From: a virus
Lineage: Duplodnaviria > Heunggongvirae > Uroviricota > Caudoviricetes
Virus record (IMG/VR): IMGVR_UViG_2778261181_000003
DNA: 25,108 nucleotides
Strand: one strand, 5' to 3'
Positions 3,985 to 15,565 of the stretch are shown here, one piece after another. Made by a program: the position numbers and the translations under genes. Positions within the stretch are counted from its first letter, which is position 1. Each line of letters opens with the position of its first letter. The notes under the pieces were generated by a model that searched no databases, had not been told where the DNA came from, and saw nothing but the letters and a program-made list of their open reading frames with translations.

Positions 3985-4211
3985 TGGCTGATGCAATGGA
4001 TCTCGTACAGCAGCGCGTTGAAGAAGAACGCCAGCGCCATATCCGTGCTGCCCGTGCCAAAACACCGGGCGTGTCTCGCGTGCTTTGCATTGAATGTGAA
4101 GCACCAATTCCGCCAGCACGCCGCCGTGCCATTCCTGGAGTGCAGCTTTGCATTACCTGTCAGGAAATCGCAGAGCTGAAAGGCAAACATTACAACGGAG
4201 GTGCTGTATGA
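3984..4211 (+). CDS. TraR/DksA-family C4 zinc-finger protein (75 aa)
   Basis: Four-cysteine pattern CIECE ... CITCQ with Arg-rich linker typical of phage TraR/DksA-like proteins; stop overlaps the dam ATG (ATGA). Confidence 0.7.
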   Translation: MADAMDLVQQRVEEERQRHIRAARAKTPGVSRVLCIECEAPIPPARRRAIPGVQLCITCQEIAELKGKHYNGGAV

Positions 4212-5065
4212 GCACCATCCTGAAATGGGCGGGAAATAAAACCGCAATTATGTCCGAACTGAAAAAATACCTACCTGCTGGCCCGCGACTGGTTGAACCT
4301 TTCGCGGGTTCCTGTGCTGTGATGATGGAGACGGATTACCCCAGCTATCTGGTTGCGGATATTAATCCTGATTTAATCAACCTCTATAAAAAGATTGCCG
4401 CTGATTGCGAGGCGTTTATATCGCGGACCAGAACTTTGTTTGAGGAAGCAAACAGTGACCTAGCTTATTACAACATAAGGCAGGAGTTTAATTACTCAAC
4501 TGAAATTAATGATTTCATGAAAGCGATATATTTCCTGTATCTCAATCGTCATGGTTACCGTGGGTTATGTCGCTATAACAAGAGCGGGCATTTCAACATT
4601 CCCTACGGTAATTATAAAAATCCGTATTTCCCTGAAAAAGAAATTCGCGCATTTGCAGAAAAAGCCCAGCGGGCAACGTTTATCTGCGCCAGCTTTGATG
4701 AAACGCTGGCGATGTTGAAGGCGGGGGATGTGGTGTATTGCGATCCGCCGTATGACGGCACGTTTTCCGGTTATCACACTGACGGCTTCACTGAAGATGA
4801 CCAGTATCACCTGGCATCCGTTCTTGAATATCGATCATCAGAAGGTCATCCGGTCATTGTTTCTAACAGTGATACATCCCTGATCCGTTCGCTGTATCGC
4901 AATTTCACTCACCACTACATCAAGGCAAAACGCAGCATCGGCGTGTCAGCTGGCGAGAGTAAATCTGCAACAGAAATCATTGCTGTTTCCGGGTCGCGCT
5001 GCTGGATGGGATTTGATCCTTCGCGTGGCGTGGATAGTTCTGCTGTGTACGAGGTGCGTGTATGA
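4208..5065 (+). CDS. dam: DNA adenine methyltransferase, Dam family (N6-adenine MTase)
   Basis: N-terminal LKWAGNK motif (AdoMet binding) and catalytic DPPY motif in the translation; ATG at 4208 overlapping the upstream stop; 3' end overlaps the A gene start. Confidence 0.85.
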
Positions 5066-7476
5066 GTCATGACGATATGAGCAACTCTAGCGGCTTTAAC
5101 GAGGCTGCCGCAGCATTTTCATGGAACGGCCCGAAAAAGGCCATTAACCCTTATCTGGATCCGGCGGAAGTTGCGCCGGAGTCTGCACTTTCAAACCTGA
5201 TCACTCTGTACGCTGCCGATAACGAGCAGGAACAACTGCGCCGCGAGGCACTGAGTGAGCAGGTCTGGGAGCGTTATTTCTTTAATGAATCCCGTGATCC
5301 TGTCCAGCGCGAAATGGAGCAGGATAAGCTCATTAGCCGGGCAAAGCTGGCGCATGAGCAGCAGCGTTTTAACCCGGACATGGTCATTCTGGCAGATGTC
5401 AGCGCCCAGCCTTCTCATATCAGCAAGCCGCTGATGCAACGTATCGAATACTTCAGCAGCCTGGGCAGGCCAAAGGCTTATTCCCGCTATTTGCGTGAGA
5501 CGATTAAGCCATGTCTGGAGCGACTGGATTGTGTACGTGACAGTCAGCTATCTGTTTCTTTCCGTTTTATGGCAAGCCATCAAGGGCTGGAGGGGCTGCT
5601 GATCCTGCCTGAAATGAGCCAGGATCAGGTGAAACGCCTGTCCACCCTGGTAGCAGCGCATATGAGCATGTGTCTTGAGGCCGCTTGTGGTGATTTGTAC
5701 GCCACCGATGACGTTAAGCCAGAAGAAATCCGCAAGACATGGGAAAAGGTGGCTGCGGAAACCCTGCGTCTGGATGTTATCCCGCCTGCGTTTGAGAAAC
5801 TTCGTCGGAAAAGAAACCGCCGCAAACCTGTGCCCTATGAACTCATACCGGGTTCGCTGGCACGTATGCTTTGCGCCGACTGGTGGTATCGAAAATTGTG
5901 GAAGATGCGTTGCGAATGGCGGGAAGAGCAGTTGCGTGCTGTCTGTCTGGTCAGCAAAAAAGCATCTCCCTATGTCAGCTATGAAGCAGTGACGCATAAA
6001 CGTGAGCAGCGCCGCAAGTCGCTGGAGTTTTTCCGTTCTCATGAACTGGTGAACGAAGACGGAGACACGCTGGATATGGAAGATGTGGTAAACGCCAGCA
6101 GCAGCAACCCGGCACATCGCCGCAATGAGATGATGGCCTGCGTTAAAGGTCTGGAGCTTATCGCGGAAATGCGCGGTGACTGCGCCGTTTTCTACACCAT
6201 CACCTGTCCGTCACGTTTCCATTCCACGCTCAATAACGGCAGACCAAACCCGACCTGGACAAATGCGACGGTAAGACAAAGCAGTGATTATCTGGTCGGC
6301 ATGTTTGCTGCATTTCGTAAGGCGATGCACAAAGCCGGATTGCGGTGGTATGGCGTGCGGGTGGCTGAGCCGCATCATGACGGTACTGTGCACTGGCATC
6401 TCATGTGCTTCATGCGTAAAAAAGACCGCCGCGCCATCACTGCATTACTGCGTAAGTTTGCCATCCGTGAAGACCGCGAGGAACTGGGCAATAACACGGG
6501 GCCACGCTTTAAGTCTGAGCTGATTAACCCGCGCAAAGGAACGCCGACAAGCTACATCGCGAAATACATCAGTAAGAACATTGACGGGCGTGGTCTGGCT
6601 GGCGAGATCAGCAAGGAAACGGGTAAATCCCTGCGTGATAACGCTGAATACGTTAATGCCTGGGCGTCTCTGCATCGTGTTCAGCAATTCCGCTTCTTTG
6701 GCATTCCGGGGCGTCAGGCTTACCGTGAACTGCGATTGCTGGCTGGTCAGGCGGCAAGGCAGCAGGGTGACAAAAAAGCAGGTGCGCCGGTACTGGATGA
6801 TCCGCGTCTTGATGCCATTCTGGCTGCTGCTGATGCTGGCTGTTTTGCCACCTACATTATGAAGCAGGGCGGCGTGTTGGTTCCCCGCAAATATCACTTG
6901 ATCAGAACCGCTTATGAAATCAACGAAGAGCCGACCGCCTATGGTGATCACGGTATTCGTATTTATGGCATCTGGTCACCCATTGCAGAGGGCAAGATCT
7001 GCACTCATGCAGTGAAGTGGAAAATGGTTCGTAAGGCCGTTGACGTTCAGGAGGCGGCAGCCGACCAGGGCGCTTGCGCCCCTTGGACTCGTGGCAATAA
7101 CTGTCCCCTTGCTGAAAATTTGTACCAACAAGGGAAAGACAAATCAGCTGATGGAGATACCAGAACGGATATCACCCGTATGGATGACAAGGAGTTGCAC
7201 GATTACCTGCACAGTATGAGCAAAAAAGAGCGCCGGGAACTGGCAGCAAGGTTACGCCTGGTGAAACCGAAACGGCGTAAAGACTACAAACAGCGAATTA
7301 CAGATCATCAGCGACAGCAGCTCGTGTATGAACTGAAGTCCAGGGGATTTGATGGCAGCGAGAAAGAGGTCGATTTACTCCTTCGCGGCGGCAGTATTCC
7401 GTCAGGAGCAGGCCTGCGTATCTTCTATCGGAACCAGCGTTTGCAGGAAGATGATAAGTGGCGGAACCTGTATTAA
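5062..7476 (+). CDS. A: Replication initiation endonuclease A (rolling-circle initiator, P2 gpA-like)
   Basis: 804-aa protein with HUH-type motif ([13 protein letters not shown]) and paired-tyrosine motif ([10 protein letters not shown]) as in the phiX174 A / P2 A superfamily; position after the early genes matches P2/186. Confidence 0.85.
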
Positions 7477-7545: not shown

Positions 7546-7588
7546 TTTACATCAGTAAGATTATTATATACTGTAAATATAAACAGTG
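7546..7588 (+). promoter_or_regulatory. SOS-regulated promoter: LexA box tACTGTaaatataaACAGtg (7569-7588) overlapping a sigma70-like -35 TTTACA / -10 TATACT
   Basis: CTGT-N8-ACAG with AT-rich spacer, mismatches to the consensus TACTGTATATATATACAGTA at only three positions; about 40 nt upstream of the RBS and ATG of ORF 7629. Confidence 0.65.
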
Positions 7589-7628: not shown

Positions 7629-7817
7629 ATGCAGGACTATTTTTTGGAGTCTTTGAAGCTCCAGCGCATTGATTTTTTTCTTAAGCTTGTAGCGGCTAGT
7701 GAGTGTAGTGATGAAGAGAAGGGGCTGGCTCTGCAGTGGGTTTCTGAATTGACTGATGAACTCATGGCAAAAATCAGAACCCACGAATACAACCGCTCAA
7801 TGGATGTCATCAGTTGA
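7629..7817 (+). CDS. Small protein downstream of the LexA box (62 aa); possible Tum-like antirepressor N-terminal module
   Basis: Strong RBS AGGAGGAAAG before the ATG; the location after gene A and under a LexA box matches the 186 tum locus. Sequence identity to Tum not verified. Confidence 0.5.
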   Translation: MQDYFLESLKLQRIDFFLKLVAASECSDEEKGLALQWVSELTDELMAKIRTHEYNRSMDVIS

Positions 7818-7827
7818 GGTGACTTTT

Positions 7828-8061
7828 ATGCGCATTGAAATAATGATCGATAAAGAGCAGAAGATTAGCCAGTCTACCCTGGACGCCCTTGAATCCGAGC
7901 TTTACCGCAATCTGCGCCCCCTGTATCCCAAAACGGTAATTCGTATCCGCAAAGGTAGCTCTAACGGTGTGGAACTGACCGGACTGCAACTGGATGAAGA
8001 AAGAAAACAAGTGATGAAAATTATGCAGAAAGTGTGGGAAGACGACAGCTGGCTGCATTAA
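7828..8061 (+). CDS. DinI-family protein (77 aa)
   Basis: Resembles E. coli DinI in length and pattern (MRIE..., acidic C-terminus ending WEDDSWLH versus DinI ...WESADDWF); GAGGTGA RBS; same operon as the LexA-box promoter. Confidence 0.75.
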   Translation: MRIEIMIDKEQKISQSTLDALESELYRNLRPLYPKTVIRIRKGSSNGVELTGLQLDEERKQVMKIMQKVWEDDSWLH

Positions 8062-8205
8062 GAAACGTTGCCTCCAGGAGGATTCATTCTGATGGGGGCT
8101 AGTTTGGGCAACGAGTGAAACGAGGCGTAAGGTGGGCGGGCATTTTGATAAGTGATCGTCCGCTTTGTGCTAGAAGCGGTCGTTACCGCTTCAGCACTTT
8201 GTTAA

Positions 8206-10065
8206 TTAGTGAGGGCTGGTTATTACGTAGTCGCTCTGGTCATCCTCTCCCAGCCTCTCAGGTATTAAATCGTTGAAGGAAATAGTATTACTCTTAGGTT
8301 TTTCTTCAATTGGAAGTTCAGCTACCCTTAATTTGAGCGGCATGGGGCAGACGATACCACTAAAAATACAGGTTCCTGTAGATAGCGTTGGAATCGACTC
8401 TTCAGTCAGTCGATCTATATATGATACTGATTTTTCAATTGCGTACAGATCATTCTGATTAATAAGGCGATGAATAAAATAATTGTGTGCTTGGGATATG
8501 ATTGTCGACGATATATCATTAGGGCGTTGACTGGAAATTGTGATAAAAACTCCAAATTTTCTCCCCTCCTTTATGATTTCCTCAAAAGTTTCCAGACGAT
8601 AATCTCTCCAACTTTCCGTTTCCCGAAAAGAAGTATTAGACAAAATATTGTGGGCTTCATCTATAATGATGTGCAGTGTAGATTTCTCTGTAGACATTTT
8701 CTTCATATTGTAAGCCCACTTGGCTATCAAAAGAGGAAGCGTTTTTTTCATGGTTATATTAACCATATTTAGATTCACAACCGTGAAATTATGTTCACCC
8801 CAAAAGTCAGACTGTCCGGAAGTATCAAATATTTTGGCTATATCTTTACGGTTAGCACTCATTCTATTTATAACTGGTGAAATATGTTCAGGGTTAGACT
8901 TGTTAGATAAATATTCCTGTATTAACTGTAAGTACATAAAGTCCAACAGTTCTTCAATCATATCAGTTTTAAATGAAAAATTGCTTGCAAGACTGAATAG
9001 ATAGGAGCGCTCAGTATCAGCTTCTGTATTGAAAATACTACCACCCCTCAATTTCCATTTATATGCAGTTGAATGATACTCAAGATCAGATATAAGTTCT
9101 GGGTCATCTTTGAAAATTGGGCTAAGAAACTGATTTATAGTATCGCATTTGGGTTTGTCGCTACTAAAGAGATTTTGTCTGACTTTTTTCTTCAGGATAT
9201 TGCGCATAAACTCAAGAGGATTATCAGCAGTCATCACTTTCTTGCGAAACTCAAGAACTCTCTTCAGGAAAGGTTTCTGTGTTTTGTCTGTTGCATCGGT
9301 TAGAACTGAGAGCATATCATGCTCAAGTAGAACCTCTCTGGGTAGAGGAAGTTTGTCACCATTTGCATGGTGCGTGTTGAGATTATAAACCGTCTTCTCG
9401 TCAGTAATACAGCGTGGGGCAGTATATTCTCCATTAAAGTCGAATAGAATAAATTTGCATCTTTCACTAAAGTGGTTGCCGAGAATATGTTTAACTTGGG
9501 CAATACCTGCTTTGTATAGCGCGGCTAGGGTATTTGACTTTCCGCTGCCTGTATTACCGAAAATGGCAATGTGGGAATTAATAAGACCATTGATTGGTAG
9601 TGCAATTTCAATATCTTCAAGATCTGTACGAGTAAACCTCATTACAGTTTCGTCTGCATCAGCTATCTGATGAACCGTCTGTATCATCTCTTCAGTTACC
9701 ACGAAGACTTCATTGCCGATGAGAGGTAGTTCACGCGAACCACCAATGAAGCAACCAGTACGATCAATGTAACCCGTAAGAGTAGAGGTCAGGTATCGCC
9801 GATATCGCCAGGCATCACTGCCGCTCCCAGCGAGATGTTTTTCCTCAATGATTCGTTCCGCTTCAACCTTGCCGATCAGGCTCATGAAACCTTTTTTGAT
9901 CTCAATGAAGCTACCCACTGATACATTTCTTAGAACTTTTCCCTGATAAAACAAGTCACTGAGATTTTTGTTTTTATCGACCAAAATTGTCACAGCGCGT
10001 CCAGAAACCTCACAGACTTCGCCTATACGGAGCACCGCTTCCTCTTCAGTAAAATGCCTGCTCAT
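8206..10065 (-). CDS. HerA-like ATPase (FtsK/HerA superfamily), partner of SIR2 in a SIR2-HerA anti-phage system
   Basis: Walker A GNTGSGKSNT and Walker B HIIIDEAHNI in the translation; ATG at 10063-10065 overlaps the SIR2 stop (ATGA) with GGGAGG RBS; AT-rich relative to the phage backbone. Confidence 0.8.
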   Translation of the reverse strand: MSRHFTEEEAVLRIGEVCEVSGRAVTILVDKNKNLSDLFYQGKVLRNVSVGSFIEIKKGFMSLIGKVEAERIIEEKHLAGSGSDAWRYRRYLTSTLTGYIDRTGCFIGGSRELPLIGNEVFVVTEEMIQTVHQIADADETVMRFTRTDLEDIEIALPINGLINSHIAIFGNTGSGKSNTLAALYKAGIAQVKHILGNHFSERCKFILFDFNGEYTAPRCITDEKTVYNLNTHHANGDKLPLPREVLLEHDMLSVLTDATDKTQKPFLKRVLEFRKKVMTADNPLEFMRNILKKKVRQNLFSSDKPKCDTINQFLSPIFKDDPELISDLEYHSTAYKWKLRGGSIFNTEADTERSYLFSLASNFSFKTDMIEELLDFMYLQLIQEYLSNKSNPEHISPVINRMSANRKDIAKIFDTSGQSDFWGEHNFTVVNLNMVNITMKKTLPLLIAKWAYNMKKMSTEKSTLHIIIDEAHNILSNTSFRETESWRDYRLETFEEIIKEGRKFGVFITISSQRPNDISSTIISQAHNYFIHRLINQNDLYAIEKSVSYIDRLTEESIPTLSTGTCIFSGIVCPMPLKLRVAELPIEEKPKSNTISFNDLIPERLGEDDQSDYVITSPH

Positions 10066-11105
10066 CTCGAGCCTCCCAGATAGCACGTGATAATGTTATT
10101 CATTACCGGAAAATCAACATTTCTTCCCGGCCGATAAATAATCTCTACGTTTGAGTAATCCCGAAATTTCTCCATAAAGCCGTTAACACTGGCCTCATCG
10201 AAAGCAAAGATCAGTAGCTTCAGGGTGGCGTTGCGCAGGGCTTTTTTAGTTATCGTTTCAATGTGCTCATCAGCAAACGAGAACCCAAAGACAATTAGTA
10301 AAGTTGCTTCTTTATCAAGCTCGTTGGAATAGGTTCTCAGTAAATCATAATAAACGTTCTGTAGTAGAGTCTCTTTAAACTTCTCCTTACGTGGAAGAAT
10401 AAGTGCATGAGCAAGTACCCATCCTTTCATTTCGGCTAGGGTGGGAAAGTCAAGCGGCTTAATATCTGCAATACGATAAATGATTTTCCCTTTAGAATGC
10501 TGCCAAGAGAGCGAACCATGAAGTTTTATAAGGTTAACAGTAGGAAGCTCAACTTTATAATTATACAGATTTCCGGTTGCACTTACAGAATGATTAAAGC
10601 TACCCGCATCAAATTCCGCATCTCCCAAAATACTTGCTCTTCTATTGAATCCATCATTAAAAAGAATATTGTTATTACGTGTGGCAGCTTCTTCGATGAA
10701 TAAATCATAATTAGTTGTAAAAACGTTAATACGCCTCGGAAGTAGGCCAGTTCGGCGGCGGGTCAGTATCTTTTCCAGTGAAGACATAAATGCATCATAA
10801 TTTGCACGGGTACATTCCAAATCGGTGATCACCTGAGGTGCGAAGGGGGTGCCGTAGCCGCGCTTCAACATGCATTCATGAGGTAGCCAAACATCTGACA
10901 AAAAGTCAGCTGCCATCCTTAAGTATTCATCTTCCTGTTCATCATTAATAAGCTGCTGAAGATCCGTTTCGATTGTCCCCAGTACTTTAATCGCTGGGAG
11001 GGATGCACCTGATCCGATGAGAAAGTTAATGTTAGCTGACTGAAATATCCGCTCTAAGTAGTCTCGGTCACTATCGTTACCGTAGTATGCGCGCTTGACT
11101 GCCAT
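10062..11105 (-). CDS. SIR2-domain protein (predicted NADase effector) of a SIR2-HerA anti-phage system
   Basis: Translation shows glycine-rich NAD-binding loop FLIGSGAS, the SIR2 TNYD motif (VFTTNYD) and a downstream KLHGS histidine; ATG at 11103-11105 with AAGGA RBS; immediately upstream of and coupled to the HerA gene. Confidence 0.8.
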   Translation of the reverse strand: MAVKRAYYGNDSDRDYLERIFQSANINFLIGSGASLPAIKVLGTIETDLQQLINDEQEDEYLRMAADFLSDVWLPHECMLKRGYGTPFAPQVITDLECTRANYDAFMSSLEKILTRRRTGLLPRRINVFTTNYDLFIEEAATRNNNILFNDGFNRRASILGDAEFDAGSFNHSVSATGNLYNYKVELPTVNLIKLHGSLSWQHSKGKIIYRIADIKPLDFPTLAEMKGWVLAHALILPRKEKFKETLLQNVYYDLLRTYSNELDKEATLLIVFGFSFADEHIETITKKALRNATLKLLIFAFDEASVNGFMEKFRDYSNVEIIYRPGRNVDFPVMNNIITCYLGGSR

Positions 11106-11529
11106 CTTATCCTTCCACAAAACATTGGATTAGTCTGTAATTTATTTAATCTTAACGCCGAGCTCAATACTTTAACATCACTTCTTCTGGCGATTGCTAT
11201 GAGCCCTTCTTGATAAAAAGTTCGATCGGGAAACTGATCCTTTATGCCACAAGTTTTCTAGCTATCCTCAAAAAATTGGTGTTAAAACTGTGCCAACAAA
11301 GTTGCAAGGTTCGCTTCTCGCTCACAGCGAACTTTCATCTTTGTAAACCCGTATGATTCGCTTTTCAGCAGTCATTCAGATACGGATTTACGCTTCCCTT
11401 GGCAGCGCATGACTATGACGCATGAGATCGCATGATCGTTTGAGGATCGTTTTTGCTGAAGTCAGCCAGAACTGGCGTGCTTTTGCTTATGTCATGCAGG
11501 TGCATGAAAACCACTACATAAAGCGGGCA

Positions 11530-11549
11530 GGCGTGGCGGGGATACGAGC
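11530..11549. other. Candidate cos (cohesive-end) site of the P2/186-type phage
   Basis: GGCGTGGCGGGGATACGAGC: the first 13 nt match the 186 cos overhang as I recall it (GGCGTGGCGGGGAAAGCAT; P2 GGCGAGGCGGGGAAAGCAC). Lies in the non-coding gap between the right-end cargo and the portal side, where cos is expected in a prophage. Confidence 0.4.
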
Positions 11550-11674
11550 GCGCGCTTAAGGATAAATTGAAGTTGATTTAATTTTTCGACATGGATAATC
11601 TTAACTACGTATGATTATTGATAAAAAATAAACATAAACAATTGTAGCGGATCTTAAAACTTATTAGGATTAGT

Positions 11675-12736
11675 ATGCTTAAAACAAATAAGGTATTTAT
11701 TGACACACAAACGTACGTAAAGGCTGGTCTTCATTTTGAGGGGGTAGCATTTAAAGCTTTCCATGAATTATGTGCGAAAGGTGATTTAGTCTTAATTACA
11801 ACTACAGTTGTAGAGAGAGAAGTAAAAGGTAAAATAGAGGAATCAATAAAGGATGCTCTGCAGGCTATAAACACAGTACAAAGAAAAGCTAGGCTTTTGA
11901 ATAGTATTGATAATGGACCGCTCCATGGTTTTTTTCAGCAATTTAACGAACATGAAATTCACGAAGCAGCACAAAAAGTTTTTGATGATTTTTTGAAAGG
12001 ATGTCACGCCAAATTAGCTACAATAGAAGTGATAGATCTTAATGAGGTTTTAGATAAATACTTTGGCAAAGAACCACCATTTGGGCAAAATAAGAAAAAA
12101 AGTGAGTTTCCTGATGCAATCACTTTAGCTGCGGTAGAGCGATTTGTTAATGATGAAGATGTGTATATCATTTCTGAGGATAGTGACTTAAAAAATTATT
12201 GTGATGGTAAAAACAATCTTCATCAAATTGATTCACTTGATAAGTTTCTAGGTGAATACAATACGCATACAAACGAATTAAGTAATAAATTGATGCAGTT
12301 TATCGAAAGCAAACGTGAAGACATAAGAGCGGACGTAATTGCCCAACTCAATGATGCCGATGGATATAACGTTTCAACTTGGGAAGACGCTGAATTGGAT
12401 TCATTTGAAGTCGTCAATATTGATGACTTTGAACCATCAATAATTAAGATTGACAATAATTATTGTCTAGCGACCTTCTCTGTTTCTGTAGATTTTGAAG
12501 TTACTGTTTCTGGTCCAGACTTTAATAATGGGTATTGGGATAGCGAAGATAAAGTAATGATTCCAATGGAGACAACCACACGAACTGAAGTTCAAGAGAT
12601 TAGTTTCGATATTGAAATTGAAGTTATGTATGAAATCGAGGATGGTGAATTAACAGATATCGCATTTGATGTGAATATTGATAAGTTATCCCGAGGGATT
12701 GAGTTCTCTATTGAAGAAAATAATTTTGAATATTAA
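11675..12736 (+). CDS. PIN-like nuclease-domain protein with acidic C-terminal domain of unknown function (353 aa); candidate defence or abortive-infection gene
   Basis: N-terminal half has a PIN-type acidic-residue pattern (KVFIDTQTY, VVEREV, EFPDAITLAAVERF, VYIISEDSDL); C-terminal about 170 aa is D/E-rich and beta-like; very AT-rich gene with its own 550-bp upstream region and a strong downstream terminator. Confidence 0.7.
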   Translation: MLKTNKVFIDTQTYVKAGLHFEGVAFKAFHELCAKGDLVLITTTVVEREVKGKIEESIKDALQAINTVQRKARLLNSIDNGPLHGFFQQFNEHEIHEAAQKVFDDFLKGCHAKLATIEVIDLNEVLDKYFGKEPPFGQNKKKSEFPDAITLAAVERFVNDEDVYIISEDSDLKNYCDGKNNLHQIDSLDKFLGEYNTHTNELSNKLMQFIESKREDIRADVIAQLNDADGYNVSTWEDAELDSFEVVNIDDFEPSIIKIDNNYCLATFSVSVDFEVTVSGPDFNNGYWDSEDKVMIPMETTTRTEVQEISFDIEIEVMYEIEDGELTDIAFDVNIDKLSRGIEFSIEENNFEY

Positions 12737-12745
12737 TTCGTTCAT

Positions 12746-12777
12746 AACGGCATCATTGTGATGCCGTTGGGTTTTAT
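12746..12777 (+). terminator. Rho-independent terminator after the PIN-like gene
   Basis: Perfect 10-bp stem AACGGCATCA / TGATGCCGTT with 3-nt loop, followed by GGGTTTTAT; overlaps the stop codon of the convergent portal gene. Confidence 0.6.
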
Positions 12778-13799
12778 AATGTATATATTTCAAAATTTAT
12801 AATTTCATGACCAAGCCATCTGTTTATTTCCATGAATCTTTTTTGAAGTGGTAATAGTTCATTTCTTACGAAGACGCAGCTCGCCTTCTCCACATCACCA
12901 AAACCCCCAACATTATTCGGCAAAATTCCCATCATCTGAGGCGGTACGCGGTGTGCCGCCATCATGTCATCACGGCTGACGTTCTTGATGTTCAGAAATT
13001 CATCCTTCGCCGCGACTTCTGACAACGGGATGATCTGAAGCCCGTCCTTTTTGCCGTTAGGCGAGTACATAAACAGGTTGCGGAAGTTGCCAGGGCCTTT
13101 GGCGCTTTTCATCGCATTGCGGAGGTTGTTCACATCCTCCTGGTTCTGCGCGGCATCGGTCATGTACATGATGAAGCCTGCATGGCTGCCGTTAATGTAA
13201 TACTTCCGGCGGAACAGCGTGGCGGACTCGTTGAGCAGGGCTGACGGAATGGCAGAAAGATAACCTGGTAGGCCGTAGATCTCCTGGTTGATGTCAGGTT
13301 CCATCAGATGAAAAATGCTGCCTTTCGTGAACTGATACGGCTGGGTTGTCATACCGTATTGCACAAACCAGTAGGTATCCAGGTCTAACCCGCGTCGGGT
13401 GTATTTTGCCAGAGCAGGCTCAAGGGCGATAACTTCACCGAAGCGGTTCGTGCGTTTCTCCAGGTAGGCGTTACCAAATACCAGATAGTCCTGCACAAAA
13501 CGTGAAAAAGCCTGCTGGCTGAGCAGCGGGTGAGGGATGTAGGTACTGGTCAGAATGTTGCATTTCACCGCAATTGGTGAGCTGTGATGCACGGCGGCGC
13601 GGAAGGTTCGTGCCAGTCCGTCAAAGCTGACGGGCGGCTCATACCAGCGATCCATCTGTACGCATTCCACATAGTCCAGCAGTTCACGGCGGTCCAGAAC
13701 AGGAACGGGATCGCCAAAGCTGAATGCTTCGGCTGAAGTTTGGCTTTTATGCTTGAGCTGATTCGTCGCCGCAGCGCGGTTTTTCTTACTCTTTCCCAT
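12774..13799 (-). CDS. Q: Portal protein (P2 gpQ-like)
   Basis: 341 aa from ATG 13797-13799, which overlaps the terminase stop (ATGA); size and position match P2 Q, transcribed leftward after P toward cos. Confidence 0.85.
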   Translation of the reverse strand: MGKSKKNRAAATNQLKHKSQTSAEAFSFGDPVPVLDRRELLDYVECVQMDRWYEPPVSFDGLARTFRAAVHHSSPIAVKCNILTSTYIPHPLLSQQAFSRFVQDYLVFGNAYLEKRTNRFGEVIALEPALAKYTRRGLDLDTYWFVQYGMTTQPYQFTKGSIFHLMEPDINQEIYGLPGYLSAIPSALLNESATLFRRKYYINGSHAGFIMYMTDAAQNQEDVNNLRNAMKSAKGPGNFRNLFMYSPNGKKDGLQIIPLSEVAAKDEFLNIKNVSRDDMMAAHRVPPQMMGILPNNVGGFGDVEKASCVFVRNELLPLQKRFMEINRWLGHEIINFEIYTL

Positions 13800-15565
13800 C
13801 AAAAAATCTCCACAATATTGCTGGTATTGGCGGACTCGCCCTGCAGCGGTTCATTAAACAGTGCGTGCATTGTTGCCCAGGCCAGATCGGCGTGGCTGGC
13901 TTCTTCGCTGCGGCTGGCTTCATAGGTCGGGCGGTTGCCGCTGGCAGTGGTGGCGCGACGGATTGCCATAAAGGACTGCGCTATGTCGGTGTGCCCTGCG
14001 TCAAACTCCAGGCGGCGGTGGCTAATAATGTCGTAGGCCTTGAGTACCAGGGCGTTTTTAACGTTGGGGTTGTAGACAAACTCCCGGACGGCAGGAAAAA
14101 ACGCTTTCACGTTCTCGTAAACCCCGTGACCGACGCCGGTTGAGTCGATACCGATGTATGTCACGTTGTACTGTTCGGTCAGTTTTTTGATGGCGTCAGC
14201 CTGGGCGCGGAAGTCCATCCCGCGCCACTGGTGACGTTCAAGAATGCGAAACTTACCGCCTGGCACGGCTGGCGGTGCCACCACCACGCATCCGGCGCTG
14301 TCGCCGTTCTGCGTACCTTTTGCCGGGTCATAACCGATCCACACTTCGCGCCAGCCAAACGGGCGCAGGGCCAGTGCATGAAAGTCGCTCCAGACTTCCC
14401 AACTGTCCACCATGCACGCCTGCAGCTCGCTGAGCGGGAACACGGACGCGAGATCGTCCACAAACTCGCACATCAGCAGGTTCTGGTATTCGTCCGGGCT
14501 GTACTCCATGCGCAACTGATCGAGGTCGAAAAGGTTACATCCGCCGCGCACTGCATCTTCCACGGTGACTATCTGGCGGTATTGCCCGTCTGCGCACAGC
14601 AGGCCGGGGGCCAGATTGCTGTGGGACAGGTCGATGTCCACCTTATCGGCTTTGTTGCGCCCACGGTTGAACAGCGCACCAGACCAGAACGGATAAGCAC
14701 TGTGTGTCAGGCTGGATGGCGTGGAAAAATAGGTTTGTCGCCATTTTTTGTGAATAGCCATACCGGAAGCCACTTTGCGCAGCTCCTGGAATTTCGGTAT
14801 CCAGAAATATTCATCCAGATACAGGTTGCCGTGATAACTCTGGGCAGTGCGGGCATTGGTGCCGAGGAAGTAAAGCGTGGCCCCGTTAGGAAGCACCATC
14901 GGATCGCCTTTCAGCTCCACCTCGACTTCTTTGGCGAAGTCGATGATGTATTGCTTAAAGACGTGAGCCTGTGCCTTACTGGCAGAAAGGAAAATCTGGT
15001 TACGTCCGGTAAGCAGGGCGTCAATCAGGGCTTCACGGGCAAAGTAAAAGGTCGCGCCGATCTGGCGTGACTTCAGCAGATTACGGATGCGGTTGGTTTT
15101 TCCAGCTTCCCACCAGTGGCGCTGGTAGTTGAACATGGAGGAATGGAAGATTTCTTCCAGCTTCTCAATCTGTTCATCGGTGAAAACATTCTTTTCCGGC
15201 TGACGGCGCGGCCCTTTGTTGCGGTTGGCGACGTTAGGGTTTAAGTCGGCTTCGTTGCCGCCATTGTTAAACTTGCCGATCCGCGCGTGGCGCTCCGACT
15301 GGCGTGCCAGCAGGTCAATTTCTTTGAAATCTTTCCCTTCTTTGTGCTCCTTCATAATGAGCTGGCAATAGCGTGCGGCGGTGGTGAGCTGCATCTGATC
15401 CAGCGGCCCATAGTCACCCCACTTGTCGCGTTTTTTCCAGCTGTGAACGGTTGCAACTTTCTCGCCCAGCATTTCAGCAATGCGGGCTACGCGGTATCCC
15501 TGAAAGTACAGCAGCATGGCCTGCCGACGGGGATCGAGATCTGCGGGTGTCAGTGTGGTGTTCAT
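13799..15565 (-). CDS. P: Terminase large (ATPase) subunit (P2 gpP-like)
   Basis: 588 aa (P2 P is about 590); ATG at 15563-15565; divergent from the O gene as in P2. Confidence 0.9.
   Translation of the reverse strand: MNTTLTPADLDPRRQAMLLYFQGYRVARIAEMLGEKVATVHSWKKRDKWGDYGPLDQMQLTTAARYCQLIMKEHKEGKDFKEIDLLARQSERHARIGKFNNGGNEADLNPNVANRNKGPRRQPEKNVFTDEQIEKLEEIFHSSMFNYQRHWWEAGKTNRIRNLLKSRQIGATFYFAREALIDALLTGRNQIFLSASKAQAHVFKQYIIDFAKEVEVELKGDPMVLPNGATLYFLGTNARTAQSYHGNLYLDEYFWIPKFQELRKVASGMAIHKKWRQTYFSTPSSLTHSAYPFWSGALFNRGRNKADKVDIDLSHSNLAPGLLCADGQYRQIVTVEDAVRGGCNLFDLDQLRMEYSPDEYQNLLMCEFVDDLASVFPLSELQACMVDSWEVWSDFHALALRPFGWREVWIGYDPAKGTQNGDSAGCVVVAPPAVPGGKFRILERHQWRGMDFRAQADAIKKLTEQYNVTYIGIDSTGVGHGVYENVKAFFPAVREFVYNPNVKNALVLKAYDIISHRRLEFDAGHTDIAQSFMAIRRATTASGNRPTYEASRSEEASHADLAWATMHALFNEPLQGESANTSNIVEIF

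Follow-up and report, generated by a model that had tools for sequence, protein, structure and literature searches.

A probable SIR2-HerA anti-phage system carried as accessory cargo beside cos in a 186-like prophage of the P2 family

We analysed a window of 25,108 nucleotides, the whole stretch of viral DNA held under IMG/VR record IMGVR_UViG_2778261181_000003. The carrier is a 186-like phage of the P2 family, and a gene pair encoding a SIR2-family protein and a HerA-type ATPase forms its right-end accessory cargo. The pair lies between the replication gene A and the portal gene Q, adjoining cos (Table 1). The gene order is SIR2 followed by HerA, both genes are co-oriented, and their adjacency was kept in all loci examined.

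Table 1. Features of the locus (positions in the window; a dot marks features given without strand)
Feature	Position	Strand	Evidence or remark
Gene A, replication	5062-7476		On the tum/DinI side of SIR2-HerA
DinI/tum-like left neighbour (phage backbone)	7571-8061	+	LexA box, two ORFs
LexA box CTGTAAATATAAACAG	7571-7586	+	
62-aa ORF of the DinI/tum-like operon	7629-7817	+	
77-aa DinI-like ORF	7828-8061	+	phrog_189 DinI, 1.5e-29
Strongly structured spacer separating HerA from the convergent DinI/tum-like operon	8062-8205	.	RNA fold z-scores -4.45 (+), -3.85 (-)
Mobile cassette carrying SIR2 and HerA	8180-11336	.	Homology breakpoints
HerA-type ATPase gene	8206-10065	-	619 aa; ORF, Pfam DUF87, PADLOC HerA, PDB sequence matches
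ATGA overlap, SIR2 stop/HerA start	10062-10065	-	Sequence read
SIR2-family NADase gene	10062-11105	-	347 aa; ORF, Pfam SIR2_2, PADLOC SIR2, RefSeq identity, predicted fold
Non-coding region 5' of the operon	11106-11399	-	Includes SIR2 Shine-Dalgarno AAGGA, 11110-11114
Conserved cos block	11400-11556	+	Alignment with P2 and 186 genome ends
Portal gene (Q)	12774-13802		Beyond cos

The SIR2 gene starts at the ATG at 11105, which is served by an AAGGA Shine-Dalgarno sequence, making a longer ORF from the TTG at 11120 unnecessary. The classical Pfam SIR2 family did not match the protein; Pfam SIR2_2 (PF13289) matched instead, at 48.3 bits over a cut-off of 24.5 (E=1.4e-12), and the PADLOC SIR2 model PDLC04080 was covered from position 1 to 347 of 347 (698 bits, 6e-211). 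The NAD-binding loop (G31, G33 and S35) lies in FLIGSGAS at residues 28-35, and the catalytic residues N132 and D134 (TNYD) and H196 (LHGS) lie in VFTTNYD at 128-134 and KLHGS at 194-198, respectively. All six residues were invariant in a 38-sequence homologue alignment reaching down to 40% identity. The NAD-binding and catalytic site is intact. When a Zn-ribbon with two CxxC pairs was sought in the SIR2 sequence, three cysteines only and no CxxC were found, and a canonical sirtuin protein deacetylase was rejected on this absence. An AlphaFold2 model of SIR2 (pLDDT 83.4, pTM 0.85) was compared with the PDB using Foldseek. Ranks 1-37 were all SIR2 subunits of three solved SIR2-HerA complexes (8yhx, 8su*, 8ua*, 8j4u, 8sxx, 8wld, 8woc and 8w9l; E 1e-15 to 4e-10), with other defence sirtuins (ThsA, DSR2, SPARSA) at E 2e-7 or weaker. 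SIR2 is 100% identical to RefSeq WP_028985770, and homologues are widely spread across Enterobacterales with the length kept at 347 aa.

HerA begins with the ATG at 10065, preceded by a GGGAGG Shine-Dalgarno sequence at 10072-10077. It matched Pfam DUF87/HerA (70.1 bits, cut-off 23.2, E=3.9e-19) and, over its full length, the PADLOC HerA model PDLC04097 (885 bits, 6e-267). Both nucleotide-binding motifs are intact: Walker A, GNTGSGKSNT, occupies residues 170-179 (K176) and Walker B, HIIIDEAHNI, residues 465-474 (D469/E470). A conserved aspartate, Asp209 in FDFNGEY, follows the Walker A lysine by about 33 residues. In the PDB its sequence matched HerA from three SIR2-HerA complexes, 8wiv (Paenibacillus), 8yho (S. 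aureus) and 8j4u (E. coli). The protein agrees with WP_086482717 at 618 of 619 residues (99.8%), the sole substitution being D136N.

At the junction the minus strand reads ...CTCGAGATGAGC, such that the SIR2 TGA (10062-10064) overlaps the HerA ATG (10063-10065). RefSeq homologues are annotated with equal lengths and the same 4-bp overlap, and the arrangement is consistent with translational coupling within one SIR2-HerA operon. A sigma-70-like promoter was sought 5' of SIR2; the best candidate, TTGAGC-17-TAAATT at 11167-11139, agreed at 8 of 12 positions and was not convincing, and promoter-like sites in this region were no commoner than in shuffled sequence. Compared with a 91%-identical copy, dN/dS was 0.119 for SIR2 and 0.112 for HerA, which points to strong purifying selection on both genes. 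The sequence-only reading had described two minus-strand genes joined by an ATGA overlap, had quoted all five motifs given above and had placed the pair in the SIR2-HerA family. Both ORFs and the junction were found where it had put them, and every motif was present. Its family assignment was borne out by the profile searches it had proposed, in which both proteins gave Pfam and PADLOC matches far beyond chance. The predicted SIR2 fold and the conservation of the catalytic and Walker residues bear it out as well.

To the left of the pair, the DinI/tum-like operon corresponds to the tum SOS operon of phage 186. Between its end and the HerA stop codon lie 144 bp, and within this spacer a hairpin, GAAGCGGT-CGTT-ACCGCTTC at 8173-8192, sits on the left boundary of the cassette and is likely to act as a terminator for both directions. 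On the right, the slot holding SIR2-HerA stops at the cos block. The cos 19-mer GGCGTGGCGGGGATACGAG at 11530-11548 is followed by CGCGCGC, and its first 13 bases are those of phage 186 cos. The exact 26-mer was found in more than 120 viral contigs. Across 121 cos-anchored loci, conservation extended only from about -130 to +27 around the cos start.

Base composition sets the pair apart from its surroundings. The GC content is 41.8% for SIR2 and 39.3% for HerA, against 53.1% for gene A and 56.0% for the late genes, placing the cassette (about 40%) 13-16 points under the phage backbone (53-56%). Homology to related loci breaks sharply at about 8180 and about 11316-11336, where the cassette-specific part of the 5' region also stops. 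In a locus with a different cassette (L002), homology ends at 8179 and restarts at 11317, and a 91%-identical copy in a non-prophage chromosomal defence island spans exactly 8183-11336, among type I R-M genes, a restriction endonuclease and a TPR protein. The cassette was present in 18 of 5426 complete E. coli genomes. Most sister prophages whose flanks are 96-99% identical lack it, and KAP NTPase or HEPN genes fill the same slot in such prophages instead. At megablast level none of 50,697 deposited phage genomes contained it, only a 97-bp cos flank being matched. The cassette is mobile between P2-like prophages and defence islands of the chromosome, and is kept in two unrelated genomic contexts.

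A defence hotspot of P2 near cos has been described previously (Rousset 2022, PMC9122126; Vassallo 2022, PMC9519451), and the present locus shows the variable content among syntenic prophages and the atypical base composition of such a site. The sequence-only reading had called the pair AT-rich relative to the flanking phage genes, had located it between the replication/tum module and cos at the position of P2 old/tin, and had regarded this position as a cargo hotspot. The GC values agree with the first point, and position and strand agree with the second. The third is upheld by the published hotspot together with the low GC content, the sharp breakpoints, the other systems in sister prophages and the non-prophage copy.

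The likeness to P2 old/tin is one of place and role. Both pairs lie on the minus strand and read away from cos, in the slot bounded by the replication module and cosR, and old and tin, too, are dispensable lysogenic-conversion genes through which other phages are excluded. In contrast, the Old and Tin proteins are unrelated to SIR2 and HerA. Old belongs to the OLD family of ATPase-nucleases and Tin stops T-even phages from growing; to our knowledge neither uses NAD+ chemistry.

The locus holds a real, intact SIR2-HerA pair in a P2/186-like prophage hotspot, in an arrangement already present in public catalogues. The pair is not new, because its SIR2 is WP_028985770 and Rousset et al. 2022 lists the same arrangement. 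Their Table S5A entry NZ_QRLO01000001 concerns the same hotspot (gpA to gpQ), the identical SIR2 accession and the gene set seen here (SIR2_2, hypothetical, DinI, DUF87 and PIN_12). The PADLOC PDLC04080/PDLC04097 subfamily and the RefSeq pair are essentially the same proteins, only HerA D136N differing, and RefSeq labels them simply 'SIR2 family protein' and 'ATP-binding protein'. A literature search by accession found no publications naming these proteins, and no phage-challenge data were found in the literature that could be tied to this SIR2-HerA lineage. The SIR2 + HerA representative of system 14 in Table S5B of Rousset 2022 is a different lineage. Its HerA is Nezha-type (E=1e-202 to 8j4u), and the HerA described here is 28% identical to system 14/Nezha HerA over 135 residues only, so that at least two SIR2-HerA lineages occur in the P2 hotspot. 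Neither was tested in that study (PMC9122126).

Among the characterized systems, E. coli Nezha (8J4U, 8SU9, 8SUB) shares with our pair the two-gene architecture, the SIR2 fold (TM 0.59-0.67), the catalytic N and H and the Walker motifs. However, Nezha SIR2 has 415 aa compared with 347 aa here, and the two are 18-19% identical by structure alignment (sequence E=1.5e-11). With the NCBIfam equivalogs NF042942 and NF042943/NF042944, SIR2 reached 99.8 bits (cut-off 500) and HerA 138.6 and 117.4 bits (cut-offs 800 and 850, respectively). A Gao/Nezha-type assignment was rejected on these scores, all far under the cut-offs, which place the pair in a lineage of its own inside the broad SIR2-HerA family rather than among the Nezha orthologues. 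The nearest solved SIR2 is that of S. aureus Sir2-HerA (8YHX/8YHO; PMC11514289), with a sequence E of 3.5e-21 and a fold E of 1e-15. The SaSir2 motifs TTNYDLF, K(L/I)HGS and GF.F.DEHI align with the present protein, although SaSir2 has 428 aa and is about 21% identical to it; its partner SaHerA is without ATPase activity (PMC11514289). Structure alignments put the SIR2 identity to characterized systems at 16-22% overall. The key residues of the E. coli type III system (Zhang et al. 2026) are Sir2 N238 and HerA K188 and D218, as compared with N132, K176 and D209 here. By numbering only, our SIR2 is about 100 residues shorter at the N-terminus, and type III membership was set aside by residue numbering alone.

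We consider it probable that the two genes form a SIR2-HerA anti-phage system, an accessory cargo in the slot that runs from the SOS-controlled tum/DinI operon to cos. The SIR2-HerA operon is transcribed away from cos, as is old-tin of P2. By analogy with solved systems, a HerA hexamer would dock on a SIR2 ring (a dodecamer, or a tetradecamer as in Paenibacillus) to give a complex of about 1 MDa. Assembly into a complex that activates the NADase is known for the S. aureus, E. coli and Paenibacillus systems. A complex of 12:6 stoichiometry has been described, in which SIR2 is active only when bound to HerA (PMC11514289), and in Paenibacillus complex formation switches on NADase, nuclease, ATPase and helicase activities (PMC11472057). 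Infection would trigger the SIR2-HerA complex, whereupon SIR2 would hydrolyse NAD+; HerA-linked ATPase and DNA-nicking/nuclease activities may contribute to the response or gate it. The infected lysogen would then halt growth before the invader's cycle ends, so that sister cells carrying the prophage would be protected by abortive infection. We infer NAD+ depletion and phage protection from the characterized relatives (E. coli Nezha, S. aureus, Paenibacillus and E. coli type III). In relatives NAD+ fell 7- to 17-fold (PMC13464706), and four E. coli subtypes showed a growth collapse fitting abortive infection (PMC13434337). Because the lineage is distant from all characterized systems, its stoichiometry, trigger and balance of NADase and nuclease could differ.

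How the immunity is apportioned between the subunits is one point on which another reading may be weighed. The system could be a genuine SIR2-HerA whose immunity comes mainly from HerA nicking/nuclease activity and ATP consumption, the NADase being secondary or gated, as reported for type III. There, the HerA D218A nickase mutant lost defence while its NADase could still be stimulated (PMC13434337), and the nuclease and helicase activities awakened by complex formation in Paenibacillus (PMC11472057) point the same way. The spacing of HerA D209 (FDFNGEY) from the Walker A lysine resembles that of type III K188/D218, although the equivalence of D209 and D218 follows from numbering only. However, the S. 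aureus system has NADase activity without ATPase activity (PMC11514289), and the SIR2 catalytic residues are invariant subfamily-wide, so NADase activity is clearly under selection. On balance we find a mainly HerA-driven immunity rather unlikely. To the same limited extent we would credit an intact but cryptic pair, which gives no measurable protection against common laboratory coliphages or may instead have narrow targets, such as other P2-like phages or P4-like satellites. Zhang et al. 2026 (PMC13434337) defined eight E. coli Sir2-HerA clusters and tested representatives, of which four were active; a cryptic pair would belong to the four clusters inactive in the 110-phage panel. The activity of only half of the clusters, the rarity of the cassette in complete genomes and the ability of P2 hotspot systems to act on P2-like relatives (Rousset 2022, PMC9122126) are in keeping with this. 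Against it stand the strong purifying selection on both genes, the wide Enterobacterales spread at a fixed SIR2 length and the retention in two unrelated contexts.

Readings outside defence fared far worse, and both were rejected on the evidence counted against them. An addiction module resembling toxin-antitoxin systems, in which SIR2 would be the toxin, HerA its restraint and the prophage thereby stabilized, would draw on the auto-inhibition of apo SIR2 and the HerA-dependence of its activity in relatives (PMC11514289, PMC11472057), and on the partition systems and HipA-like toxins carried by the same hotspot. But HerA activates and does not neutralize SIR2 in the characterized systems (PMC11514289, PMC11472057), a small labile antitoxin is lacking, and an integrated prophage hardly needs post-segregational killing; we regard such a module as very improbable. 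A function in the phage life cycle, for example HerA as a translocase for replication or packaging with SIR2 as a regulator, is less probable still, to the point of being barely credible. HerA/FtsK ATPases are DNA pumps, and HerA gave a weak PHROG match to terminase large subunits, confined to the P-loop region. However, the phage has its own terminase and portal, and the cassette is missing from most sister prophages and, at megablast level, from deposited phages; it also occurs outside prophages and is 13-16 points lower in GC than the backbone.

Returning to the SIR2-HerA defence system, this lineage, whose identity to each solved system is below 22%, may use a trigger and gating of its own, tuned to the life of a P2-like prophage, an idea we hold to be a long shot. 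The trigger might, for example, be a protein from rival P2-like phages or P4-like satellites, and the system might be silenced during prophage SOS induction by the convergent LexA-controlled tum/DinI operon. Silencing through convergent transcription is weakened as an explanation by the structured, terminator-like spacer between the two units. If true, either an own trigger or SOS silencing would answer how a prophage-borne abortive infection system spares its carrier phage.

The locus does not represent a new kind of system: its proteins are in RefSeq, dedicated PADLOC models exist, the arrangement has a 2022 catalogue entry and the family mechanism has been dissected structurally. It offers a clean textbook case of a temperate phage that would carry an abortive-infection system to the benefit of its lysogen, and such cargo is recognizable by a reader from raw sequence.

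As a separate observation, a cargo slot lies on each side of cos within the hotspot. The left slot here holds an uncharacterized PIN_12 gene, which had no PADLOC, NCBIfam, PHROG or PDB sequence match; in a fold search its N-terminal half resembled VapC-like PIN only and its C-terminal half gave nothing significant. From this locus the P2 hotspot is seen to consist of two cargo slots that flank cos and assort independently, a point of modest value.

The SIR2-HerA pair consists of two minus-strand open reading frames lying exactly where the sequence-only reading had placed them, and every SIR2 and HerA motif it had quoted is present in the translated proteins. On the minus strand the junction reads CTCGAGATGAGC, in which stop and start codons share ATGA as claimed, and both genes have a Shine-Dalgarno sequence rated good (AAGGA, 4 nt 5' of the SIR2 start; GGGAGG, 6 nt 5' of the HerA start). 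Gene lengths and overlap are the same in homologues annotated in RefSeq. SIR2 and HerA form an intact operon with translational coupling. Its AT-richness was also borne out, GC content being 40.2% as against 53.1% in gene A and 56.0% in the late region.

When both proteins were searched against profiles, the family assignment held. SIR2 matched Pfam SIR2_2 (E=1.4e-12) and HerA matched Pfam HerA/DUF87 (E=3.9e-19), while the PADLOC SIR2-HerA models PDLC04080 (SIR2, 698 bits) and PDLC04097 (HerA, 885 bits) covered the proteins end to end. RefSeq WP_028985770 is identical to SIR2 (100%), and WP_086482717 differs from HerA by one residue. The AlphaFold2 model of SIR2 (pLDDT 83.4, pTM 0.85) was compared with the PDB using Foldseek, and the best 37 matches were all SIR2 subunits of three solved SIR2-HerA complexes (E 1e-15 to 4e-10, TM 0.5-0.67): those of S. 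aureus (8YHX), E. coli Nezha (8SU9, 8SUB, 8J4U, 8SXX) and Paenibacillus (8WLD, 8W9L). The next group, comprising KomBC, DSR2, ThsA and SPARSA, starts at E=2e-7. The HerA sequence matches the HerA subunits of the same three complexes. A classical Zn-ribbon deacetylase was rejected as an identity for SIR2, since the protein has only three cysteines and no CxxC pair.

Both the catalytic and the Walker residues of the pair are conserved. G31, G33 and S35 of the NAD loop and N132, D134 and H196 of the catalytic site do not vary across an alignment of 38 SIR2 sequences with identities as low as 40%. When 5.8 billion proteins were searched, the 347-aa SIR2 turned up at 60-90% identity across many genera (Serratia, Citrobacter, Photorhabdus, Hafnia, Pantoea, Enterobacter, Erwinia, Salmonella, Proteus, Yersinia, Klebsiella and Xenorhabdus). 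Between the window copy and one of 91% identity in another genome, dN/dS was 0.119 for SIR2 and 0.112 for HerA; both genes are therefore maintained by purifying selection.

The interpretation of the pair as anti-phage defence is supported, and it probably is a functional SIR2-HerA system that works broadly as its relatives do. Its trigger and the balance of nickase to NADase may differ from theirs, and common laboratory phages may not be affected by it. By analogy with these (PMC11514289, PMC11472057), HerA would hexamerise on a SIR2 double ring, and SIR2, inactive alone, would become an NADase once in the complex. Infection would then lead to NAD+ loss and growth arrest. In the E. coli type III system the phage proteins Gp2.5 and Gp5.9 set off both a nickase activity of HerA and the NADase of SIR2, and an ATP checkpoint separates the two (PMC13434337).

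The window represents a 186-like phage of the P2 family. Its gene order runs from integrase, 186-type CI repressor, CII, Fil and a Dam-like methylase to gene A and, beyond the cargo region, continues with portal, terminase, scaffold and P2-type capsid genes. The 62-aa and DinI-like open reading frames look like the counterpart of the tum SOS operon of phage 186, split into two genes. The cos 19-mer is followed by CGCGCGC, whereas TGCGCGC follows the cos sequences of 186 (GGCGTGGCGGGGAAAGCAT) and P2 (GGCGAGGCGGGGAAAGCAC). The right ends of both phages can be aligned with the ~130 bp on the left of the window's cos. The minus-strand SIR2-HerA pair thus sits at the packaged genome's right end, flanked by tum and cos. 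Old and tin of P2 have exactly this position and orientation; the cos site and end alignments show that the earlier placement was correct.

Features of the window (window positions)
Feature	Position	Strand	Details
D12-class N6-adenine DNA methyltransferase gene	4148-5065	+	Pfam E=5.6e-76
Gene A	5062-7476		replication gene
LexA box	7571-7586	+	CTGTAAATATAAACAG; ahead of 62-aa and DinI-like ORFs
62-aa ORF	7629-7817	+	behind LexA box
DinI-like ORF	7828-8061	+	77 aa; separate gene, convergent with HerA
DinI-like/HerA spacer	8062-8210		144 bp
Spacer hairpin	8173-8192
HerA	8206-10065	-	619 aa; ATG 10063-10065
SIR2	10062-11105	-	347 aa; ATG at 11105, TGA stop 10062-10064
Conserved cos block	11400-11556		~155 bp
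cos site	11530-11548		GGCGTGGCGGGGATACGAG, then CGCGCGC
PIN_12/DUF4935 gene	11675-12736	+	353 aa, 33.7% GC
Portal stop codon	12774	-

The D12-class methyltransferase gene sits directly 5' of gene A, overlaps its start by 4 bp and is conserved among the sister prophages. Its product could shield the phage from restriction.

That P2-type hotspots carry SIR2-HerA is already known. The cos-proximal gpA-gpQ region of P2-like phages, between replication gene A and portal gene Q, was defined as a defence hotspot by Rousset et al. 2022 (PMC9122126) and also described by Vassallo et al. 2022 (PMC9519451), in agreement with the recognised cargo hotspot invoked earlier. In Table S5A of Rousset et al. 2022, NZ_QRLO01000001 is entered as 'SIR2_2 + hypothetical + DinI + DUF87 + PIN_12' with WP_028985770 as its SIR2, and Table S5B gives hotspot system 14 as 'SIR2 | DUF87' with 188 occurrences, under the name 'SIR2 + HerA (Gao et al., 2020)'. 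For that system the table prints a HerA of the Nezha type as representative (E=1e-202 to 8J4U); it shares 28% identity with the window HerA, over 135 residues only. Both window proteins also miss the NCBIfam equivalogs for Gao-type proteins by a wide margin. By these sequence comparisons the hotspot therefore hosts a second lineage of SIR2-HerA, to which the window pair belongs. Among eight Sir2-HerA clusters of E. coli, each tested through one representative, Zhang et al. 2026 (PMC13434337) found four active: Nezha and types I, II and III. Type III identity was ruled out for the window lineage by key-residue positions, compared by numbering (Sir2 N238 and HerA K188 and D218 in type III; N132, K176 and D209 here); the lineage may correspond to type I, type II or one of the inactive clusters.

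Homology breakpoints delimit the cassette. A sister prophage carrying a KAP NTPase instead matches the window at 96% identity as far as 8179 and at 99.6% from 11317 onwards, and such exchange among sister prophages supports the cargo status proposed for the pair. Outside any prophage, the chromosome of E. coli 873.10 (NZ_CP061754.1) carries a 91%-identical copy that spans exactly window 8183-11336 (locus positions 9001-12153). The island holding it lies near ypjA and also contains a restriction endonuclease, a TPR protein, type I R-M genes and insertion sequences (IS1, IS3). The cassette has therefore moved between prophage hotspots and defence islands. Of 5426 complete E. coli genomes, 18 carried it: 13 copies with at least 99.8% identity in P2-like prophages, three at 91% in the 873.10-type island and two at 75%. 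An index of the public assembly collection places the exact HerA in 1391 blocks. GCA_027273855.1 and one metagenome scaffold share the window's order of portal, PIN_12, SIR2, HerA, DinI and A. The spacer between the convergent DinI-like and HerA genes is unusually structured (RNA fold z of -4.45 on the plus and -3.85 on the minus strand), and its hairpin falls on the left breakpoint of the cassette.

The gpA-gpQ hotspot is in fact two cargo slots on either side of the conserved cos block. Across 121 loci with the exact cos 26-mer, the conserved stretch ran only from approximately -130 to +27 relative to the cos start, and outside it both flanks dropped to the majority-base frequency of unrelated sequence. 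The 79 loci with both flanks fell into 44 right-end-side and 62 left-end-side sequence clusters in 74 different combinations, so that reassortment of the two slots is close to free. Homology to the window stops at 11555-11560 in six sister prophages and resumes only within the 3' end of the portal gene. Where left-slot cargo differs between sister prophages, megablast homology returns only at 12811-12883, indicating that the last ~12-36 portal codons are exchanged along with it.

The left slot, which runs from cos to portal and lies at the packaged genome's left end, is occupied by the PIN_12/DUF4935 gene; P2 and 186 have only ~190 bp here. Its protein had no matches in PADLOC, NCBIfam, PHROGs or PDB sequences, and the only literature found terms the family uncharacterised (PMC5499597). 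A confident AlphaFold2 model (pLDDT 89) predicts a VapC-like PIN domain in the N-terminal half and a beta-sheet domain in the C-terminal half, for which a fold search returned no significant solved counterpart. Homologues occur in two further accessory settings, a lambdoid Aeromonas prophage and a locus of P. aeruginosa, where the gene adjoins AbiTii and a Pf-like filamentous prophage. A single-gene defence or toxin-like accessory function can reasonably be proposed for it.
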